Shown in pieces: positions 3,050 through 52,325 of a stretch of DNA of 64,000 bases (positions are counted from its first letter, which is position 1; every line of letters begins with the position of its first letter). The notes beneath the pieces were generated by a model. It made no database searches. It was not told the origin of the DNA and saw only the letters and a program-made list of their open reading frames with translations. The position numbers and the translations under genes were made by a program. Location of the stretch: assembly GCA_963701305.1 (NCBI GenBank), contig OY969586.1:1074690-1138689 (forward strand), written 5' to 3'. This DNA comes from Candidatus Aminicenantes bacterium (lineage in GTDB: Bacteria; Acidobacteriota; Aminicenantia; Aminicenantales; CAVYOD01).

Positions 3050-5773
3050 TTACTTCGAGCCAAGGTCGGGGATGGGAACTTGCTCTGCGGCGCAGGTTGC
3101 CGACAACTCTTGCAGCGACCAAGGCTCGTCCTCAGGATAGATCGCCGAGTACGGCTGCTGAAGAAGCTCGACCGCCTCGCTGGTCTGCGCGTCGCACCAG
3201 CCGGGAATCTCCTTTTTGATTTCATTCAGCGAAACGCCGCTCAGTTTGAGGGTGATCAAGGTTTTCACGCTTTCGGTGTTGATCAGGATCGTTTTCATTC
3301 CTCCCTCAAGGATCTTCTTTTTGGCCCGGGCGATCTTCCCGTCCCCGATTTCGTCGAGGAGATGCATGTATTTCTCAAACAAAATCCATTCGTTGATAAG
3401 CACAGCTATTTCCGAAGGAGAAAACGAGGTCCAGAACCGGACGGGTTGCCTCAAACAGATGAACCGGCCGAGCATGAAGGTCCCCGCGGAATAGCCGTAT
3501 TTCTTTGTCTGGACGCATCTGCGGAGGGCATCCTTGAAAAACCTGATCTTTCTGTCCGGGGTCAAGAGGTTAAACACGGCGTGCTGTTTCAGATGGTCAC
3601 CCATCTCGCTTCGGAGAACATCCTTGACGTAGATGGTTCGATGGCCGTCGAACCATTTGTTGACAAGTTCTTTGGCCTTTTCCGTTTCCCCCCTGAATTC
3701 CAGGATCGCCAGCCGAATAATCTCCCGAAGGCTGGAGATCTGCTCCAGCTTCAGGCTGGCAATGAGTTCGTTGTAGGCCCGGTAAGCGCGGGCCATGGAG
3801 GCGAAGGCCGGTTTTTCCGCTTCATCCAGTTCAACGGCCTCGCCCTTCATATAGCGAAGCAGCCGGGCCGACTTGAACTTGGCCTTACCGAGATAGAGCG
3901 CCCTTCTGTAGGACGAGACGGTCACCCAATCGCCTTCTCGGATGACCAGGCCGTCCGGATTCACGAGCCTACGGCCGGCCGACCAGGTGATTCCTTTTTT
4001 TTCAAGGTTGATCAGGCCCGGCAGACCATAACTCTGACAGATGGTCACGACATGGATAGCCGCCGATGTCAAGCTGAGGATCGCGTCCATCTCGCGCATG
4101 ACCGCGGTGTCGCTCGGCTCGAATGCCTTTTTGCAGAGGCAGACCTTGTGTCCCATCTTTTTTTGGGCCAGGGCGGCCTCGGGAGTGAAGAAGACCTGGG
4201 CGGTCACGGCTGTCCGGGGAAGGAGCGAGACTCCCGAGCTGAAATGGACCAGCTCCTTGAATGACTCTGGATCGATCGTGTCCGACTCGATCTGTTTGAT
4301 TTGATAGGGCTTGATCAGTTCGGGAACCCTGCGCTGCGGGATGATCCCGCGTTTGTGAAGCTCCATCACGGCGATGAACGCCCCCCGACCGGTCATTTCC
4401 GAACGGTTCAGCTGGAGCAGGGCAAAAAACTCCTGCCGATCCGTAAAATCGGTCGCAAATTCAATGGTCACGGGAGACTGAAAATGTCGTTCCAGCCCGG
4501 TGAGCGCCGCGCTGAAATGATAAACCGCCGGGAAATCCGCTTTGATCTCGGCCCGCTCGGTGAAGTTCGTTTTCTCAGTTTCCACGGTGCCCGCCATGAT
4601 CTCTTCGCCAAAAATGTTCGTGGCGTGTTCGATCTGCTTGCATTCGCCCGTCCGGGGATGCCGGCTATAGAGAACCCCCACCTGAGAATTCTTGTTTCGG
4701 ACCGTGCAGATCATGTTCTGAAGGATCAGAGAGGGAAAGTGGGTCTCGCCCTTAGAAAAGGTGGTCAATAAATCCAGGTTGCTTTCGAAATACTTGTAGG
4801 CCTGCCTGACAAAAAAATCCGTCTGGTAATAGGGGTCCTGGAGGAGGTCCGGATCTTTCTTTTTGACCCGATCGAAAAGCTGGCCGAGCAGGGAGTTCAG
4901 GTTCTCGGGGGGCGCCTTGGGGCGCAAAAAGAGGGAGGCAAAGCCGCTCTGGTCCACGGCCCGGAGCATGTTCTTGAGGTTGTTCAGAAAGATCCGGGAG
5001 GCGGCCTCCTGGCCATAATAGAGGACGAGGGCAGGGAAGGCATTCTCCGTGACGCCGGCGTTGAGGTAGGTGGGCATGATGCCGGGCATGTAGCTGGGCA
5101 TGGCGCAGCGGATGGCGAATATCATAGGGTAAGTGGCCGAGCCAAGTGTTTGGGCGGTCAGCCTCTCCAAGTCATGCACTGCGGTTTCAATCTTCTTCTG
5201 ACGCTCCGGCGGCTTCTTCCGATAAACGTTGGCCGTCAAGATGACAAAATCCGGCACCGGATAACCTTGCTGGCTCAGACTCAAGAGAGTCGCACCCTTG
5301 TCCCCGGTGATTTTCTTAGAGTAGCGATCGGGACTCGTGCAGGGGACTACGCAATCATCACCCTGCCGAGGGACATTGCGGAAGAAATACCGCCACTCTT
5401 GATAATAATCGTTGATCAACCGGCGCATCTTCTGTTGAGACGGAGCGGAGCGATTCCGGGCGGAGAAAATGAGGCGGCAGTAGTCGAGCGCCTTTTTGAA
5501 GTCTTTCTGGCAAAGAAAGGGTAGGTCGAGCTCTCTGATCTCTGTCTCGCCGAGAAATCTCCCTCCTCTGCCGTAAAGCTCGAGAACCGGGGGAGAAAAG
5601 CCGGTCGGGCGCCGAGCCCGTTCATTCAAGAGACGCTCTTTCATGCTGCTCAGAATGGCCCGCTGGTTGGGGTAATTCCCGCTGACGAAGAACCTCTCGA
5701 TGGATCGAAGATCTTTGACAATCATCCCCTGTGCCACGGAAGATTCAGTATCATAGGAGATTGGGAAAGTCAA
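3050..5773 (-). CDS. PEP-synthase / pyruvate-phosphate-dikinase family protein (PPDK_N ATP-grasp-like nucleotide-binding domain plus PEP-utilising mobile domain), 907 aa.
   Basis: The motif GDKGATLLSLSQQGYPVPDFVIL resembles the PPDK N-terminal GGKGANL...GLPVPPGF motif. A central TSAAIHVV...GLPGLINL...EGDWVTVSS segment resembles the phosphohistidine swivel domain (GGRTSHAAI...GIPAVVG...DGDRVTVDG), but the His is displaced. The N-terminal ~150 aa and C-terminal ~270 aa are unrecognised. Confidence 0.6.
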   Translation of the reverse strand: MTFPISYDTESSVAQGMIVKDLRSIERFFVSGNYPNQRAILSSMKERLLNERARRPTGFSPPVLELYGRGGRFLGETEIRELDLPFLCQKDFKKALDYCRLIFSARNRSAPSQQKMRRLINDYYQEWRYFFRNVPRQGDDCVVPCTSPDRYSKKITGDKGATLLSLSQQGYPVPDFVILTANVYRKKPPERQKKIETAVHDLERLTAQTLGSATYPMIFAIRCAMPSYMPGIMPTYLNAGVTENAFPALVLYYGQEAASRIFLNNLKNMLRAVDQSGFASLFLRPKAPPENLNSLLGQLFDRVKKKDPDLLQDPYYQTDFFVRQAYKYFESNLDLLTTFSKGETHFPSLILQNMICTVRNKNSQVGVLYSRHPRTGECKQIEHATNIFGEEIMAGTVETEKTNFTERAEIKADFPAVYHFSAALTGLERHFQSPVTIEFATDFTDRQEFFALLQLNRSEMTGRGAFIAVMELHKRGIIPQRRVPELIKPYQIKQIESDTIDPESFKELVHFSSGVSLLPRTAVTAQVFFTPEAALAQKKMGHKVCLCKKAFEPSDTAVMREMDAILSLTSAAIHVVTICQSYGLPGLINLEKKGITWSAGRRLVNPDGLVIREGDWVTVSSYRRALYLGKAKFKSARLLRYMKGEAVELDEAEKPAFASMARAYRAYNELIASLKLEQISSLREIIRLAILEFRGETEKAKELVNKWFDGHRTIYVKDVLRSEMGDHLKQHAVFNLLTPDRKIRFFKDALRRCVQTKKYGYSAGTFMLGRFICLRQPVRFWTSFSPSEIAVLINEWILFEKYMHLLDEIGDGKIARAKKKILEGGMKTILINTESVKTLITLKLSGVSLNEIKKEIPGWCDAQTSEAVELLQQPYSAIYPEDEPWSLQELSATCAAEQVPIPDLGSK

Positions 5774-45727: not shown

Positions 45728-45756
45728 TTGACTTCGAGTGAGTCTGTTTTTACAAT
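45728..45756 (+). promoter_or_regulatory. Sigma70-like promoter for the pyl operon (-35 TTGACT, 17-bp spacer, -10 TACAAT).
   Basis: TTGACT at 45728..45733 and TACAAT at 45751..45756. The predicted transcript start is only ~8 nt before the pylSc ATG, giving a near-leaderless mRNA with no SD. Confidence 0.5.
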
Positions 45757-45771
45757 ACTTGACATAGACAC

Positions 45772-46602
45772 ATGATCGGCTGGACATCCTCTCAAAAGCA
45801 GCGCCTAAGAGAATTGAATGCCGACCCCGGCCTGCAGGAGAAAAACTTTTTGAGCTCTCGGGAACGAGACAAGGCCTTCCCTCTAGCCGAACGGCCACTC
45901 TGCCAAAGGAGCCTTCGGAAGCTACAGAAAATAAGGGAGAGCCGCAAACGGCCCAAGATCTGCAGATTGGAATCCAGGCTCATCCGCGCTCTCGTACGGG
46001 AAGGGTTCGTTCAGGTGACAACACCCATTCTGATCTCCCGGGGATCTCTGGAAAAAATGTCTATCGGAGAAAGCCACGAGCTGGCCAAGCAGGTCTTCTG
46101 GGTCGACGAGAACCGCTGCCTGCGGCCTATGCTGGCCCCTAACCTCTATTTTCTCCTGCGAGAGCTTGTCAAAGTCTGGGAGAAACCCGTTCGAATCTTC
46201 GAGGTGGGACCTTGTTTTCGCCGGGACAGCGCGGGGAAACACCACCTCAATGAATTCACGATGCTGAATCTGGTTGAACTCGGCCTCCCGGAAAAAACCA
46301 AGACGGAGAGGTTCGAGGAGCTGGCCGCTCTGGTCATGAAGACCGCCGGGATTCAGAATCATAAGTTTACCAGGCACCAGAGCGAGGTCTACGGCGAGAC
46401 AATCGACATCGATTCTACGATCGAGCTTGCTTCGGGGGTGATCGGCCCGAATCCGTTGGATTCCCGGTGGGAGGTCGTTGACAACTGGGTGGGCATCGGA
46501 GTCGGACTGGAGAGGCTGATCATGGTCAGCGAAAAGTATCAGAATATTCAGCGGGCTGGCCGGGCGCTTGTTTATCTGGACGGGATTCGGCTCAACATCT
46601 GA
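45772..46602 (+). CDS. pylS: Pyrrolysyl-tRNA synthetase catalytic (C-terminal) domain protein, PylSc.
   Basis: Near-collinear match to the PylS class II core: CLRPMLAPNLY, PVRIFEVGPCFRRDSAGKHHLNEFTMLN, VYGETIDI, ELASGVIGPNPLD, W.GIGVGLERL and the C-terminal GIRLNI (archaeal GISTNL). Confidence 0.88.
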   Translation: MIGWTSSQKQRLRELNADPGLQEKNFLSSRERDKAFPLAERPLCQRSLRKLQKIRESRKRPKICRLESRLIRALVREGFVQVTTPILISRGSLEKMSIGESHELAKQVFWVDENRCLRPMLAPNLYFLLRELVKVWEKPVRIFEVGPCFRRDSAGKHHLNEFTMLNLVELGLPEKTKTERFEELAALVMKTAGIQNHKFTRHQSEVYGETIDIDSTIELASGVIGPNPLDSRWEVVDNWVGIGVGLERLIMVSEKYQNIQRAGRALVYLDGIRLNI

Positions 46603-46639
46603 AAAGGACAAGGCCGCCCATTCATCAAGGAGGTTGCCA

Positions 46640-47287
46640 ATGGCTAAAGAAGAGATTCTCAAGGAAGCCGCAGAATCCATCATCAATCATGATAAGGCCA
46701 AGGCCGAAGAGGTTGCCAACCGCGCTTTGGCCCAGGGGCTGGACCCGCTCGAAGTCATAACGAGGGGATTCCGGGAGGGCATCATCCAGGTCGGAGATCT
46801 CTTCGGGCGAGGTGAAATCTTCATGCCGGAGCTCCTGGACGCCGCTGAGGCGATGAAAACTGCCAACACCATTCTCACGGCCGCACTGCCCGAAGGGGCG
46901 CAGCAAAAAAAGGGAAAAGTGGTTGTCGGGACGGTTCAGGGCGACATCCATGACATCGGAAAACTCCTGGTTGTTTCTCTTCTCCAGGTCAACGGATTTG
47001 ACGTTTTTGACCTCGGGCATGACGTCGAAATCGGGAAATTTATCGAAAAAGCCCTGGAAGTCGATGCCGATATCATCGGCACCAGCGCTCTCTTGACGAC
47101 GACCATGACCGGCCAAAAGACGCTCGAAGAGGAGCTGAGAAAGGGGGGCCTCAAGCCCCGCTTCAAGACGATGGTCGGAGGAGCCCCGGTGACACAGCGC
47201 TGGGCAGACCGGATCGGAGCCGATGCTTATGGAGAGGACGCGTCCGAGGCAGTCAAAAAGGCCCTCGAATTGATGGAGAAAAAGTAG
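46640..47287 (+). CDS. Methylamine-type corrinoid protein (MtbC/MtmC/MttC-like B12-binding protein).
   Basis: N-terminal helical cap, then a B12-binding Rossmann domain with the D-x-H-x-x-G box (GDIHDIGK) and a C-terminal ...ADAYGEDASEAVKKAL. Strong RBS AAGGAGG. The ORF track starts at 46568. Confidence 0.8.
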   Translation: MAKEEILKEAAESIINHDKAKAEEVANRALAQGLDPLEVITRGFREGIIQVGDLFGRGEIFMPELLDAAEAMKTANTILTAALPEGAQQKKGKVVVGTVQGDIHDIGKLLVVSLLQVNGFDVFDLGHDVEIGKFIEKALEVDADIIGTSALLTTTMTGQKTLEEELRKGGLKPRFKTMVGGAPVTQRWADRIGADAYGEDASEAVKKALELMEKK

Positions 47288-47299
47288 CTCCATAATCTC

Positions 47300-48415
47300 A
47301 TGCTTGATCAGCCCGTGTTCTCTTTAAAATTAGAAGACGTTCTGGGGAAGGCCCTGAGCCTGAGGGGCCTGACGGGTCCGGAAATCGTTTTCCTGCTGGG
47401 TCTCAAAGCAGAAGACGAGATCTGCCTCCTCTTTCAAACAGCCCAAGAGTTGAGGGAACGCTTTTTTGGCCCCAAGGTCTTCGCCTACGGATTCGTCTAC
47501 TTTTCGACCTATTGCCGCAACAATTGTCGGTTCTGTTCTTCGCGCATCTCCAATAAACAAAAATCACGATACCGGAAGACCGAATTCGAGATCAGGGAAG
47601 CGGCCTCGGGCCTGGCTGAATCGGGGGTCCACCTGATCGACCTGACCATGGGGGAAGATCCTCGTTATTACGGCCGCAGAGAAGAGTTCGAGGGCCTGGC
47701 CGAATTGGCCGCTGTCGTGAAACGCGAAACGGGCTTGCCGCTGATGATCTCTCCGGGCGCGGTCTCCGGGAAGACGCTCGGAGATTTCGCCCAAGCCGGA
47801 GTGGATTGGTACGCTTGCTACCAAGAAACGCACAACCGTCGGCTTTTCGATGAGTTGCGCCCCGGCCAGAGTTATGAGCGCCGCATGCTGAAGAAATACC
47901 GGGCCAGAGATTTGGGGATGCTGATCGAGGAGGGGATCATGGCCGGAGTCGGCGAGACCAGCCTGGATATCGCAGATTCCATCTCGGCCATGCGCGGGAT
48001 GGGCGCCCATCAGACCCGGGTCATGAGTTTCATCCCCCAGGACGGAACGCCCATGGTCGATAGACACTCTCCTCTGCGCCTCCGCGAACTTCTCATCATC
48101 GCCGTTCTTCGTCTTGCCTTTCCGGACCGGTTGATACCGGCCTCTCTGGATATCGACGGCCTGGCCTACCTGAAAGAGAGGCTCGAAGCCGGAGCCAATG
48201 TCGTCACTTCACTCATCCCACCGTCGATGGGGTTGTCCGGTGTTTCCCAGGCCAGTCTGGACATCAACGAAGGAAACAGAACGATCCAGGGAATTATCCC
48301 GGTCCTGGACGAGACCGGATTGGAGCTGGCCGACGCGGAGGACTACGGGAATTGGGTCGGAGAGGAAAGAAGGAAGCTTCGACGACAAAATCTCAACTGC
48401 GAGGCCGAGATTTGA
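47300..48415 (+). CDS. pylB: PylB, radical-SAM 3-methylornithine synthase (lysine mutase).
   Basis: CxxxCxxC radical-SAM box (YCRNNCRFC). BioB-like length of 371 aa. Position between pylS and pylC. Confidence 0.85.
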   Translation: MLDQPVFSLKLEDVLGKALSLRGLTGPEIVFLLGLKAEDEICLLFQTAQELRERFFGPKVFAYGFVYFSTYCRNNCRFCSSRISNKQKSRYRKTEFEIREAASGLAESGVHLIDLTMGEDPRYYGRREEFEGLAELAAVVKRETGLPLMISPGAVSGKTLGDFAQAGVDWYACYQETHNRRLFDELRPGQSYERRMLKKYRARDLGMLIEEGIMAGVGETSLDIADSISAMRGMGAHQTRVMSFIPQDGTPMVDRHSPLRLRELLIIAVLRLAFPDRLIPASLDIDGLAYLKERLEAGANVVTSLIPPSMGLSGVSQASLDINEGNRTIQGIIPVLDETGLELADAEDYGNWVGEERRKLRRQNLNCEAEI

Positions 48416-49578
48416 AAATCGCTGTGGTCGGGGGAAAGCTGCAGGGCACCGAGGCGACCTATCTTTCACACAAAGCGGGCTGGGAGGTCGTCCTGATCGA
48501 CAGGAGACCTACCGTGCCGGCGATGGGATTGGCCGACGAATTCCATCAAATCGACGTCGTCGACCAGGCCTCGAAGCTGCCTTCGATCCTGAAGAAAGCC
48601 GACCTTGTCATCCCGGCCGTCGAAGACGCGCTGGCGCTGCTGTCTTTAAGACTGGTGACCGAGCAAGAAAACATCCCCCTTGCCTATGACGAAGCCTCGT
48701 ATCGCGTGTCCTCATCGAAGATAAAATCCGACCGACTCTTCAAAGACCTCGACCTCGCCGCCCCTCGAGTCTGGCCTCGTTGCGACCCACCCTTTCTGGT
48801 CAAGCCATCCAGCGCGAGCGGAAGCCACGGCGTCCGCAAGATCAAAAACAGAGAGGACCTCGCTCCTTTTATTGCCGCAAGAGATACGCAGGGGGAGAGT
48901 TGGGTCGTCCAGGAATTCCTGGAGGGCCCTTCCTATTCTCTCGAAGTCTTGGGCTGTCGAAGAAAATTCGTCGACCTTCAGACGACGACAATCGAGGTGG
49001 ACACCCTCTATGATTGCAAGAGAGTCCTGGCACCGGCGGATCTTCCGCCGGTGTTGAAGGCCAATTTCGGCGACCTCGCCCGGAAGATCGCCGCCGATCT
49101 GGATCTTCGGGGGATCATGGACATCGAAGTCATCCTCCACCAGGGTCAGCTCAAGATCCTGGAGATCGATGCCCGCCTGCCGAGCCAGACCCCGACCGCA
49201 GTATATTGCTCAACGGGCATCAACATGATCGAGCTCCTCGTCGATATTTTTGCGCGGGGCTCGCTTCCCGATTCTCTCACCATCGATCAAGAAAAAGCGG
49301 TGATCTACGAGCACATCAAGGTCACGCCAGAGACGATCGAGGTCGCCGGCGAACACATCATGGCCGGGGCCGAACCTCTCAGAGTCCGGAAGGGCTTTTT
49401 TGGCGCGGACGAGGCCATCACAGATTTCAAACCGGGAAAAGCTGAGTGGGTGGCCACCTTGATCTTTGTCGGAAAAAGCCCTCAGAAGGTTCAGGCGCGG
49501 AGGGAAGCGACGATTAACGAACTCAAAAAATACTTTGGCTTAAACGTCTATAGGGACACGGTCCCCGGGAAAGATTGA
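48412..49578 (+). CDS. pylC: PylC, ATP-grasp 3-methylornithine--lysine ligase.
   Basis: The N-terminus KIAVVGGKLQGTEATYLSHKAGWEVVLIDRRP matches archaeal PylC (MKTICLIGGKLQGFEAAYLSKKAGMKVVLVDKNP). ATP-grasp core present. Probable TTG start overlapping the pylB stop (TTGA). The ORF track begins at 48352, inside pylB. Confidence 0.85.
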   Translation: MKIAVVGGKLQGTEATYLSHKAGWEVVLIDRRPTVPAMGLADEFHQIDVVDQASKLPSILKKADLVIPAVEDALALLSLRLVTEQENIPLAYDEASYRVSSSKIKSDRLFKDLDLAAPRVWPRCDPPFLVKPSSASGSHGVRKIKNREDLAPFIAARDTQGESWVVQEFLEGPSYSLEVLGCRRKFVDLQTTTIEVDTLYDCKRVLAPADLPPVLKANFGDLARKIAADLDLRGIMDIEVILHQGQLKILEIDARLPSQTPTAVYCSTGINMIELLVDIFARGSLPDSLTIDQEKAVIYEHIKVTPETIEVAGEHIMAGAEPLRVRKGFFGADEAITDFKPGKAEWVATLIFVGKSPQKVQARREATINELKKYFGLNVYRDTVPGKD

Positions 49579-49619: not shown

Positions 49620-50492
49620 ATGACGCGCCTGACGACGGAATTTGTCCGTTCCATTCCAGACGATCTCCGTCTCTATGACCAGGGATTGCTCGAGAAGACC
49701 GGCCACAGCCTCCGACAGATTGCCTGCCGGGCCTCCCGAATCGAAGAATCGGAGATGGGCATGCTTCTTGGCTCAACACTCGTCGGGATCGTACCGGTGA
49801 CCTCGGGAGAAGGTAAGATCGAGGGCTTCTGTCAGGCTGTTCAGGGCATTACGAACCACCTCGGCGCCCCTTCGTTCGTGACGCGTCATCCGGACGTGGC
49901 CGGCTTGGCCGAAGCCGTCGAACGAAGAGCCGAGGTCATCTTCCTCGCCGATGATGGCAGATTCATCGCCCTGAACATGGTGTCCAGGACGGCCGTCGAC
50001 AATTCCGAAGCCACCGCCCGGGGATATCTCGCGGCCCTCGATTTCCTTGCGAAGGGGCTGAGGGGGAGGCCCGTCCTGGTCATAGGCGCAGGCCGGGTTG
50101 GGGGAGAAGCGCTTTCCGTCCTTCAAGAGTACGGAGCACGGCCGGGAGTCTATGATCCCGACGACAGGAAAACCCGGCCCCTCGAATCGGGAAGCATGAT
50201 CATCATCGAAAGAGATCTGGAGAAGGCTCTGGAAAAATATTCTCTCCTTCTCGAAGCCTCTCCGGCCTCAGCGATCATTCAGGAGAGACACATAAAGCCT
50301 GATACTATGATTGCCGCTTGCGGCATCCCGCTGGGGTTGAGCCCCGCGGCCGCGGTCCTCGTCCGGGAGCGTTTGATCCATGATCCCTTGCAGATCGGTG
50401 TGGCCGCCATGTTGACGATGGCGCTCACGAGGCGGAGGAATAAAGTGTGGGGGGTAGATCGGAAAGATCCCATAGACCCTAAATCTATGTAG
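49620..50492 (+). CDS. pylD: PylD, pyrrolysine synthase (NAD-dependent dehydrogenase).
   Basis: GIVPVTSGEGKIEGFCQAVQGITNHLGAPSFVTRHPDVAGLAEAVERRAEVIFLADDGRFIALNM is collinear with archaeal PylD (VGIVPVTSGNGIIGNFSASL...DMPDVSGYYEAVQNGAEIILMADDRTFLAHN). Rossmann GAGRVGG. A C-terminal ~20-aa extension reads into the pylT gene. Confidence 0.85.
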   Translation: MTRLTTEFVRSIPDDLRLYDQGLLEKTGHSLRQIACRASRIEESEMGMLLGSTLVGIVPVTSGEGKIEGFCQAVQGITNHLGAPSFVTRHPDVAGLAEAVERRAEVIFLADDGRFIALNMVSRTAVDNSEATARGYLAALDFLAKGLRGRPVLVIGAGRVGGEALSVLQEYGARPGVYDPDDRKTRPLESGSMIIIERDLEKALEKYSLLLEASPASAIIQERHIKPDTMIAACGIPLGLSPAAAVLVRERLIHDPLQIGVAAMLTMALTRRRNKVWGVDRKDPIDPKSM

Positions 50493-50521
50493 CCGGGTGA
50501 AACTCCCGGACTCCCCGCCAC
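50450..50521 (+). tRNA. pylT: tRNA-Pyl (pylT), anticodon CUA, with the CCA end encoded.
   Basis: Manual fold: acceptor GGGGGGT/ACTCCCC (7 bp, one G-U); one nt (A); D-stem GATC/GATC with a 5-nt loop GGAAA; one nt (C); 6-bp anticodon stem CATAGA/TCTATG; loop CCCTAAA (anticodon CTA at 50480..50482); 3-nt variable loop TAG; T-stem CCGGG/CCCGG with loop TGAAACT; discriminator G; then CCA. These are the hallmark tRNA-Pyl features (6-bp anticodon stem, short D-loop, 3-nt variable loop, single nt between acceptor and D stems). Confidence 0.78.
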
Positions 50522-50578
50522 AACGATATAGATAGCGCAGTCGGCGAAACCAAAGGTTTCGCGACCGAGGCCGAGACG

Positions 50579-50908
50579 ATGACCGAGAAGATCAAGGAAA
50601 AATACTATCGAAAGCAGACCGACTTCTTTTTGCTGCTCGACAAGATCAAGCTTTGGCCGTCCCGAAAAGGTCTTCTTCACGGTGTCAAAGTCCTCGAGAT
50701 CAAAGGATCTCTGGCTGAGGTCACCACTCATTGCGACCGGACGTTCCGAGTTCGCTACTCACGGCACAGCCGGGCCGCCCGGTGGCTGCGCAACAAATGG
50801 CACAAGGGCCCCTGCCGGGAGTGCCAGATTCCCGACTGGAAACTCGAAAAATACGAGAAGACATATTTTGACCAACATCGAGGGTCAACCCTGAGAGGCA
50901 AGGACTGA
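50579..50908 (+). CDS. pylSn: PylSn, stand-alone N-terminal tRNA-Pyl-binding domain of the split pyrrolysyl-tRNA synthetase.
   Basis: LWPSRKGLLHGVKVLEIKGSLAEVTTHCDRTFRVRYSRHSRAARWLRNKWHKGPCRECQIP aligns with the archaeal PylS N-terminus ([61 protein letters not shown]), including the zinc-ligand Cys/His positions. Confidence 0.82.
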   Translation: MTEKIKEKYYRKQTDFFLLLDKIKLWPSRKGLLHGVKVLEIKGSLAEVTTHCDRTFRVRYSRHSRAARWLRNKWHKGPCRECQIPDWKLEKYEKTYFDQHRGSTLRGKD

Positions 50909-50939: not shown

Positions 50940-52325
50940 ATGTCGAAAATCAGAACCAGAATGGGAGATGCGTCTGTTGTCGAGGTCACCGAGGGCCGGC
51001 TCCGGGCCGACTTAGAGGAGGGAACGAAAGATGCGGCTCAACGGGGGAAAATTCCGCCGTTGTCGCAGGATGAGCTGAACCATCTGTATGATATCTACAG
51101 CGCGCCTTCAAGAGTGGTCGGCGTGGAGCCGGGCAACGAGGTCGTCTTCACCTATGACTCCACGGTGGGCGAAATCCAGCGCACCCTTATCCCTGTGAAC
51201 AGAATCCAGTCACTGCAGATGTTCGAGCGGATGTTGGGCGCGGACACAGTCGAACTGGCTCATAATGATTACAGCTTCAAAGCCGTAAAGCCCATCATCA
51301 GCGATGAACGCACCGCCCTGGAGCAAGCCCTTTTGGTGACGACGGTGCCCGTGCTCTACGGCGCCATGCCTAACCTCGGGCTCTATAATAAGCCCGAAGG
51401 CCCAGTTCCGAATTCCTCAAAACTGATGTCCGAAGGAAAAATCAAGGAAGCCAGAGCGTCCATGGAAGAGGCCATCGAATTTGCGATCCGGGATATGGTC
51501 TATGTGGCCAGCGAACTTTACGAATCCGGCGTCGACGCGATCGATTTTGACACCACGGGCTCGGCCGGTGATCCCGATTTTTTGGCCACGCTGAAAGCCG
51601 TCGAAATCCTGAAGAAAAAGTATCCTGATATCTGCGTCGAAATGGGAATGTCCGGAGAGTTTATCCTGGGAATGCACGGCGGACTGACTTATGACGGGAC
51701 CAGGTTGGCCGGGCTCTACCCGCACCAGCAGGTGAAGCTGGCCGAGAAAGCGGGCGTCACAATCTTCGGCCCGGTCGTCAACACGAACACGAGCAAAACC
51801 TGCGCCTGGAACGCGGCCCGAGTCATCACCTTCCTGAAGACCTGTGTAGAACAATCCAACATTCCCGTGCACGCGAATATGGGGATGGGTGTGGGCGGAC
51901 TTCCTGTGACCCCCTTCGTGCCTATTGACGCGGTTTCGAGGGCATCGAAGGCCGTTGTCGAGTTGACGAGACTGGACGGGTTGTAGGTGGGCGTAGGCGA
52001 TGTTCTCGGCATGGCCGCGACTCATGCGATCGCTTCGGGCATGGGCGGGATGCGCACTGCCGGAGATCTGGTGGCGCGCATGCAAATGTCCCGGGGCCTG
52101 AGAATCCGACAAGCCAAAGAGTACGTGGCCGGCAAACTGAAAATTAGCCCCATCGATCTGGCCGATCCGTTGATCATGTCAGAAATCAGAGAGGACTTGA
52201 AGCTGGGCCTGATCAATCCTCCTCCCAACTACGCGGTTGGGATCGAGGCCAAGTTCCATGTCGCCGCGCTTTTGGGAATCGAAATCCGGAGCCTCAAACG
52301 CTTCAAGGAAAAGGCGGGCCTTTGA
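50940..52325 (+). CDS. mtbB: Dimethylamine:corrinoid methyltransferase MtbB. A single in-frame UAG is read as pyrrolysine (codon 349). The ORF track splits it at 51986.
   Basis: Both halves are collinear with archaeal MtbB: RMGDAS..., GAMPNLGLYNKPEGP, VVNTNTSKTCAWNAARVITFLK, ...[17 protein letters not shown][TAG][51 protein letters not shown] (MtbB reads ...[53 protein letters not shown]...). Both ORFs are in the same frame. RBS AAGGAGGTG. Confidence 0.85.
51984..51986 (+). other. In-frame amber (UAG) codon predicted to encode pyrrolysine in mtbB.
   Basis: A TAG in frame joins ORFs 50940..51986 and 51987..52325 exactly at the conserved Pyl position of MtbB homologs. Confidence 0.8.

Follow-up and report, generated by a model that had tools for sequence, protein, structure and literature searches.

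The pyrrolysine locus and its tRNA gene

The window analysed here, the whole 64,000-nucleotide stretch of contig OY969586.1 from a Candidatus Aminicenantes bacterium, carries a pyrrolysine (Pyl) gene cluster with the order pylSc, mtbC, pylB, pylC, pylD, pylT, pylSn and mtbB, all on the positive strand. Within this cluster, the 72-nt gene for the pyrrolysine tRNA (pylT, tRNA-Pyl(CUA), 50449..50520, positive strand) begins inside the 3′ end of the pylD open reading frame (ORF), which takes its stop codon from the tRNA, and its anticodon loop has a C at position 33. It represents a bacterial tRNA-Pyl subfamily with C33 that is nested in the 3′ end of pylD.

ARAGORN reports this gene, GGGGGGUAGAUCGGAAAGAUCCCAUAGACCCUAAAUCUAUGUAGCCGGGUGAAACUCCCGGACUCCCCGCCA, with anticodon CTA, as the sole tRNA of the 64-kb window. 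Six Gs open it at 50449, the discriminator G73 lies at 50517 and a genomically encoded CCA, expected from a preliminary description of this DNA, occupies 50518..50520; that description had recognised the gene correctly and placed it one base too high, at 50450..50521. The minimum free energy fold of the 72 nt is also the centroid fold and forms the tRNA-Pyl cloverleaf (−29.1 kcal/mol, z = −1.96), with a 7-bp acceptor stem, a 1-nt linker, a 4-bp D stem with a 5-nt loop, a second 1-nt linker, a 6-bp anticodon stem with a 7-nt loop, a 3-nt variable loop and a 5-bp T stem. The T loop, UGAAACU, has no UUC motif and hence no T54-Psi55-C56 consensus, and the D loop, GGAAA, contains a GG that may or may not correspond to G18G19. 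The identity elements recognised by bacterial PylRS, G73, G1:C72, G10:C25 and A11:U24, are present, the D stem being GAUC/GAUC, and all four are invariant in the pylT alignment of relatives, 25 of 26 of which also share the acceptor-stem wobble G5·U68.

A covariance model (R1) built from 26 distinct pylT sequences of relatives scores the window gene at 98.4 bits (E = 2.9e-20), and in the underlying alignment 99.3% of structure cells are paired, with compensatory double changes at 8 of the 22 pairs. None of 500 shuffled controls reaches the observed covariation score, and no slid control comes close. Together with the ARAGORN prediction and the fold, these results bear out the idiosyncratic tRNA-Pyl architecture read from the letters, and the window pylT is a genuine pyrrolysine tRNA gene inside a pyrrolysine operon. 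Neither at its gathering threshold nor at E ≤ 10 does the Rfam tRNA model report the window pylT, and it likewise passes over the U33 relatives L002, L007 and L028, so the miss is a general property of bacterial tRNA-Pyl and not of C33. The expectation that a covariance scan might overlook the gene is therefore correct for the generic model, whereas ARAGORN finds the gene readily. With pylT invisible to generic covariance models, its conflict with pylD may go unnoticed by annotation pipelines.

The pylD ORF (49620..50492, positive strand) encodes 290 amino acids and, as a member of the PylD family (TIGR03911 / PF21455), matches TIGR03911 with 241.7 bits against a cutoff of 150.05. Residues 2-265 align with profile positions 1-262 of 266, and in the comparison with the solved Methanosarcina barkeri PylD (260 amino acids; PDB 4q39/4j43), chain residue 257 aligns with window residue 266 (E 4e-29). 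The PylD fold ends near 50426, at residue ~269 (...AAMLTMAL), where there is no stop codon, and the protein exceeds the fold length of about 260-270 amino acids by a 21-residue tail, TRRRNKVWGVDRKDPIDPKSM (50427..50489, positive strand), translated from a 22-nt spacer and the 5′ part of pylT. A C-terminal extension past this point had been anticipated, and by the profile and structure alignments the tail lies outside the PylD fold. The TAG at 50490..50492 (positive strand) ends pylD and also makes up the whole 3-nt variable loop of the tRNA; it had been assigned to the anticodon stem or variable loop, and it coincides with the variable loop exactly and lies clear of the anticodon stem. The 5′ part of pylT does lie inside the pylD ORF, the resulting overlap of 44 nt consisting of 2 nt of a Trp codon, 13 sense codons and the stop. 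Past the pylD TAG, the same frame continues for 12 codons to a second TAG (50529..50531) and for 16 more to a TGA at 50580..50582 that overlaps the pylSn ATG at 50579 (ATGA). In the nearest relative, L001, this read-through frame holds an additional TGA two codons earlier.

The anticodon loop, CCCUAAA (50477..50483, positive strand), is defined by the sequence, the fold and the ARAGORN anticodon at position 31 of the gene: C32 is at 50477, C33 at 50478 and the anticodon CUA at 50479..50481, followed by A37 and A38. The canonical U33 of elongator tRNAs, on which the U-turn depends, is absent, base 50478 being C, and the proposed replacement of this near-universal U is confirmed by sequence and fold alike.

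Comparative sample

Related loci were gathered by a scan of genome contigs with a single PylD protein (5 loci), a metagenome scan with a PylD alignment (80 more loci) and retrieval of three further loci (L086-L088) through PylD tails that predict C33. A single pylT each was identified by ARAGORN and R1 together in the window and in 49 of the loci (50 sources in all), and with the three added loci the sample comprises 53 pylT copies, 36 of them distinct. No pylT was found by ARAGORN or R1 within 4 kb on either side of pylD in L003, L004 and L005, which are Ruminococcus metagenome-assembled genomes (MAGs) with pylD at 35-37% identity.

Among species representatives the nearest is L001, a Candidatus Aminicenantes MAG whose pylT is identical to that of the window at 72/72 positions and has the same overlap; the pylT of L006 is also 72/72 identical. 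Where pylT is thus identical, the 22-nt spacer and the downstream sequence differ from the window, the pattern expected of a tRNA under purifying selection. An identical PylD is present in further assemblies, including Logan contigs. The database PylD of L001 (P0014, 225 amino acids; 4001..4809) is frameshifted relative to the window, probably through a long-read assembly indel; tblastn gives 91-97% identity over the full length.

Several pylT genes of the sample depart from the window gene at other positions. ARAGORN missed the copies in L029, L043, L058, L061, L016 and L064, to which R1 assigns 84-97 bits, and in the first four of these the first D-stem position is A instead of G (UUAAUCG). 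U73 replaces the G73 discriminator in L036 (3950..4022) and L065 (1082..1154; ...CCCCUCCA), which in this respect resemble the 'pylTU' variants mentioned in PMC9630628. CCA is not encoded in five genes (L064 1261..1332, L068 908..979, L084 2571..2642, L086 3334..3405 and L088 1027..1098), the 3′ ends reading GAUU, GGAU, GCUA or GCCG, and an A31·C39 mismatch closes the anticodon stem in L064, L068 and L084.

Position 33 among relatives

Compared across the sampled pylT genes, position 33 is U or C: the loop CCCUAAA occurs in 16 of the 53 copies and 10 of the 36 distinct sequences, proportions that describe a sample centred on the window PylD and are not frequencies for bacteria as a whole. The remaining copies carry CUCUAAA (30), UUCUAAA (6) or CUCUAAC (1). 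Across the 36 distinct sequences, positions 34-37 never change and A38 is kept in 35; within the loop, variation in more than one sequence is confined to positions 32 and 33, each of which is always C or U. The apparent constraint at position 33, as judged from these loops, is for a pyrimidine rather than for U specifically.

On a neighbour-joining PylD tree, the C33 genes fall in one subclade, with U33 sisters lying in between: the window and L006 against L007-9, L030 and L019 against L028, L064 against L068 and L084, and L010 against L011, L012 and L031. This interleaving argues for several independent changes. In 19 clusters the PylD tail happens to translate positions 32-33, and for 16 of these it predicts C33. 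The most likely reading of these comparisons is that C33 is a natural heritable variant of a bacterial tRNA-Pyl clade.

The idea that the C33 gene is degenerating or has no function, or that C33 is an artefact of sequencing or assembly, is suggested by the near-universality of U33 in elongator tRNAs (PMC5041475) and by a view limited to one 64-kb window of the genome. It is very improbable, as the same 72 nt recur in independent assemblies (L001, L006 and the Logan contigs with identical PylD), ten distinct C33 sequences have fully paired stems and an invariant CUA-A37, each C33 gene is the only pylT in the examined stretch of its own pyl cluster, and the adjoining pyl genes and the TAG-containing mtbB are intact.

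Another explanation, that C33 is forced by the overlapping pylD frame, was rejected. In the window frame, U33 would merely swap a Pro codon for Ser without creating a stop, so coding constraint does not explain C33; moreover, the C33 genes include one with no overlap (L010), others in which the pylD frame ends before it reaches the loop (L019 and relatives) and one that the frame traverses completely (L018), and among the relatives there is no relation between C33 and the overlap frame.

The pylD/pylT overlap among relatives

The order pylD-pylT-pylSn is kept in most loci of the window's PylD subclade, in which about 22-30 nt separate the end of the PylD fold from pylT +1. Homologues of PylD do not end uniformly at the fold. 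In some, including L010 and L063, the stop lies in the spacer, leaving gaps of 13-30 nt and no overlap, and in 79 of the 120 closest PylD cluster representatives the protein runs into pylT and its tail is recognisable as translated tRNA, over all three frames. The stop may then be the UAG of tRNA positions 7-9 (overlap of 9 nt, with 10 nt also seen; tail ...MRGG), a UAG in the anticodon stem (27 nt; ...GGRIGRIA), the UAA of U35-A36-A37 (34-35 nt; ...SHRP and ...RRL), the variable-loop UAG of this window (44 nt) or a stop beyond the tRNA (113 nt; L018 and L051, with a 314-residue PylD). Overlap is thus a property of the clade and not a one-off error: the stop position drifts, while the spacing between the PylD domain and the tRNA stays constant. 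As both C33 and the overlap are widespread in related uncultured bacteria, they are lineage traits and not peculiar to the window locus.

A role of the tail as a conserved functional peptide was rejected, since relatives use three frames and at least five stop positions. Tails of this kind are not conserved as protein; they spell the tRNA in whichever frame arrives, and their drifting stops suggest that the PylD extension is not a domain but a side effect of extreme packing. One consequence is that database PylD proteins carry spurious tRNA-derived tails of 10 to 45 residues.

The overlap could instead be a regulatory device in which translation of the pylD 3′ end competes with excision of the tRNA and charged Pyl-tRNA feeds back on PylD through read-through of its UAG stop. 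Its presence in 79/120 closest clusters, the location of the pylD stop 3′ of the RNase P site in every overlap type, and the window's read-through frame of TAG, 12 codons, TAG, 16 codons and TGA, which touches the pylSn ATG, are compatible with such a device. However, neither the stop position nor the frame nor the tail peptide is conserved (three frames, five stop places), some relatives stop in the spacer and have no overlap at all, as neutral drift of a tight junction would predict, and the downstream stop arrangement differs even in L001, all of which makes a regulatory function distinctly improbable.

Proposed organisation and expression of the operon

In the interpretation favoured here, to which a probability of about 0.78 is assigned, pylT is a predicted functional tRNA gene internal to the operon, the PylD tail is a by-product of packing and C33 is a pyrimidine substitution that the tRNA tolerates, perhaps at the price of weaker UAG suppression. 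The complete split-PylRS pyrrolysine cassette of an Aminicenantes-like bacterium would thereby hold its tRNA gene within the operon, most likely transcribed from a promoter upstream of pylSc. A candidate for this promoter is a sigma-70-like site, TTGACT-17-TACAAT (45728..45756, positive strand), which is identified by consensus match only, lies 16 nt upstream of the pylSc ATG and is the sole strong site of its kind in the cluster. The sigma-70 consensus scan found no dedicated pylT promoter inside pylD, and a sequence scan found no terminator after pylD or pylT up to pylSn. A TTGACG at 50411 was considered as a pylT promoter element and rejected, being Met-Leu-Thr coding sequence with no properly spaced −10. 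The promoter and terminator matches fit a single operon transcript with an excised tRNA, without proving it.

From this polycistronic RNA, the tRNA would be freed by RNase P at its 5′ end and by 3′ trimming to the encoded CCA. With a spacer that has no stop codon, the pylD frame would enter the tRNA and continue until a chance stop triplet, in the window the variable-loop UAG, so that one transcript could give either full-length PylD or mature tRNA from the shared stretch. As the pylD stop lies inside or behind the tRNA in every overlapping arrangement, an RNase P cut at pylT +1 would remove it and leave a non-stop pylD message; if so, a tRNA and an ORF would be in competition for one RNA, an unusual situation in bacteria.

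Several points weigh against this interpretation. Co-transcription, RNase P excision and the non-stop consequence in the window organism are all deduced from sequence, and the promoter scan relies on a sigma-70 consensus that may not apply to Aminicenantes. Outside the 64-kb window, the ~4.07 Mb genome may hold another pylT, with U33; bacterial pylT duplications are reported (PMC9630628). The pylT sample was picked by similarity to the window PylD, so its 16/53 is not a general bacterial frequency. Finally, U33 changes in the M. barkeri tRNA lower suppression and binding, and C33 may thus carry a real cost.

Transfer RNA genes are known inside mRNA operons, as in the Escherichia coli thrU-tyrU-glyT-thrT-tufB operon, where the tRNA is excised from a protein-coding transcript, and in animal mitochondria tRNA excision sets mRNA ends and can cut into coding sequence. 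Unlike these, the window locus has a bacterial ORF that takes its stop from inside a tRNA, excision of which would leave a non-stop mRNA. A search of the accessible literature turned up no bacterial precedent for an ORF stop inside a tRNA. The Methanosarcina pylTSBCD operon resembles the window in that its tRNA gene is co-located, and probably co-transcribed, with pylS and pylBCD, and in encoding a tRNA-Pyl with a non-canonical cloverleaf that decodes UAG for methylamine methyltransferases; it differs in having pylT first, with no overlap, and a fused PylRS. A close described counterpart is found in Desulfitobacterium hafniense, whose tRNA-Pyl shares with the window gene the 6-bp anticodon stem, 3-nt variable loop, single acceptor-D linker nucleotide, 5-nt D loop, T loop UGAAACU without T-Psi-C, CUA anticodon and the elements G73, G1:C72, G10:C25 and A11:U24, alongside a split PylSc and PylSn in a compact pyl cluster (PMC1851642). 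The D. hafniense pylT has U33 where the window has C33, and its linker nucleotide is G where that of the window is A. The position of the window gene between pylD and pylSn, overlapped by the pylD ORF, is unlike that in D. hafniense, where pylT precedes pylSc.

Possible consequences of C33

Known exceptions to the nearly universal U33 of elongator tRNAs include a G33 in Candida tRNA-Ser and, in multicellular eukaryotes, initiator tRNAs with C33 (PMC5041475; PMC8887486). The yeast tRNA-Leu(GAG) has a natural C33 and performs about as well as its C33U mutant (PMC13492127). In the initiator tRNA-Met of multicellular eukaryotes and in Saccharomyces cerevisiae tRNA-Leu(GAG), as in the window loop, C33 replaces U33 within an otherwise normal 7-nt loop, and it is tolerated in vivo (PMC5041475; PMC8887486; PMC13492127). 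However, both of these come from eukaryotes, and the initiator binds directly to the P site; the window tRNA, in contrast, is bacterial and of elongator type, an amber suppressor whose decoding requires entry into the A site in competition with release factor 1 (RF1).

In the M. barkeri tRNA-Pyl, U33 and A37 are reported identity or suppression elements (PMC7609411), of which position 33 is C in the window; changes at U33 and A37 lowered PylRS binding and amber suppression (PMC7609411; PMC11467909), the reduced suppression with U33 mutations being seen in E. coli as host. The anticodon loop is not protected by D. hafniense PylRS (PMC1851642; PMC7609411), and charging by PylSc/PylSn is therefore expected to be unaffected by C33. 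Any effect of C33 would arise in decoding on the ribosome through a weakened U-turn, and may range from near-neutral to a modest reduction of UAG suppression.

A weaker suppressor might even be adaptive, sparing TAG-stopped genes from massive read-through. Consistent with this, TAG is the commonest stop among the 42 window ORFs of ≥120 amino acids (16 TAG, 15 TGA and 11 TAA, counted by a longest-ORF heuristic), U33 mutations reduce amber suppression by M. barkeri tRNA-Pyl in E. coli (PMC11467909; PMC7609411), and C33 recurs in at least four tRNA backgrounds. Yet the close sisters L007-9, L028 and L068/L084 retain U33, so neutral drift at a weakly constrained pyrimidine explains the distribution of C33 at least as well as attenuation does, and the equivalence of C33 and C33U in yeast tRNA-Leu(GAG) points the same way (PMC13492127); an adaptive origin is accordingly regarded as unlikely. 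The TAG-ended ORFs of the window, excluding mtbB and the corrinoid/pylB junction, have read-through extensions of 0 to 134 codons. Decoding of Pyl is conditional in Acetohalobium, the one bacterium studied, as cited in PMC11467909.

A broader proposal would combine both traits into a self-limiting Pyl system of a large uncultured clade (Aminicenantes and neighbours), in which C33 would lower UAG read-through where TAG is common, maturation of the pylT nested in pylD would destroy the pylD stop, and Pyl-tRNA would read the pylD UAG, coupling tRNA supply, PylD output and pylSn translation. This proposal is speculative and considered a long shot; a tolerated C33 in a tightly packed operon is the interpretation retained here.

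Full-text literature searches brought up neither a natural C33 tRNA-Pyl nor a pylD/pylT overlap, although published datasets may already contain such sequences without comment; the main text of the most complete pylT survey treats only variation at position 73 (PMC9630628). The tRNA-Pyl/PylRS pair is the main tool for genetic code expansion, in which U33 is treated as important for function. Natural C33 genes with close U33 sisters offer ready-made pairs for probing position 33 in a suppressor tRNA and may supply new orthogonal or tunable tRNAs, and they bear on how bacteria that use TAG heavily as a stop tolerate an amber suppressor.

Other genes and features of the cluster

The pyl genes were assigned by NCBIfam equivalog models, all above their curated cutoffs. 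The first gene of the cluster, pylSc (45772..46602, positive strand), encodes the catalytic PylRS subunit (TIGR02367, 333.7 bits, cutoff 178), and is followed by a gene for an MtbC-like methylamine corrinoid protein (46568..47287, positive strand; TIGR02370, 235 bits), the true start of which is probably near 46640, the gene call in an identical contig being 215 amino acids. Downstream are pylB (47300..48415, positive strand; TIGR03910, 459 bits) and pylC (48424..49578, positive strand; TIGR03909, 453 bits), the latter a gene call of 384 amino acids within a mechanical ORF that starts at 48352. Beyond pylT, pylSn (50579..50908, positive strand), encoding the small tRNA-binding subunit of PylRS (TIGR03912, 119.2 bits, cutoff 51), starts 58 nt downstream of the tRNA gene, and mtbB (50940..52325, positive strand; TIGR02368, 380 bits) encodes a dimethylamine methyltransferase.

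The pylB ATG (47300) sits 4 codons beyond the TAG that ends the corrinoid gene and in the same frame (47285..47302); UAG read-through at this stop would yield a fusion of the corrinoid protein with PylB, although the arrangement may be a coincidence. The mtbB gene contains an in-frame TAG at 51984..51986, a putative Pyl codon, and a match to the Rfam model PYLIS_2 at 51984..52083 (64.4 bits) that begins at this codon. PYLIS_2 is also matched in mtbB of the relatives L007 (4204..4303) and L028 (5385..5484) at 65-69 bits, and these matches may stem from conserved MtbB coding sequence rather than from RNA structure.

The 61-nt spacer between pylT and pylSn folds with z = −2.15 and contains an 8-bp hairpin, GCGAAACC-AAA-GGUUUCGC, at 50543..50561, which could be a processing or stabilising element. 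Both arms of this hairpin are changed in L001 and L006 (aaacc/ggttt to aaccc/gggtt), and the hairpin is not seen in more distant relatives.

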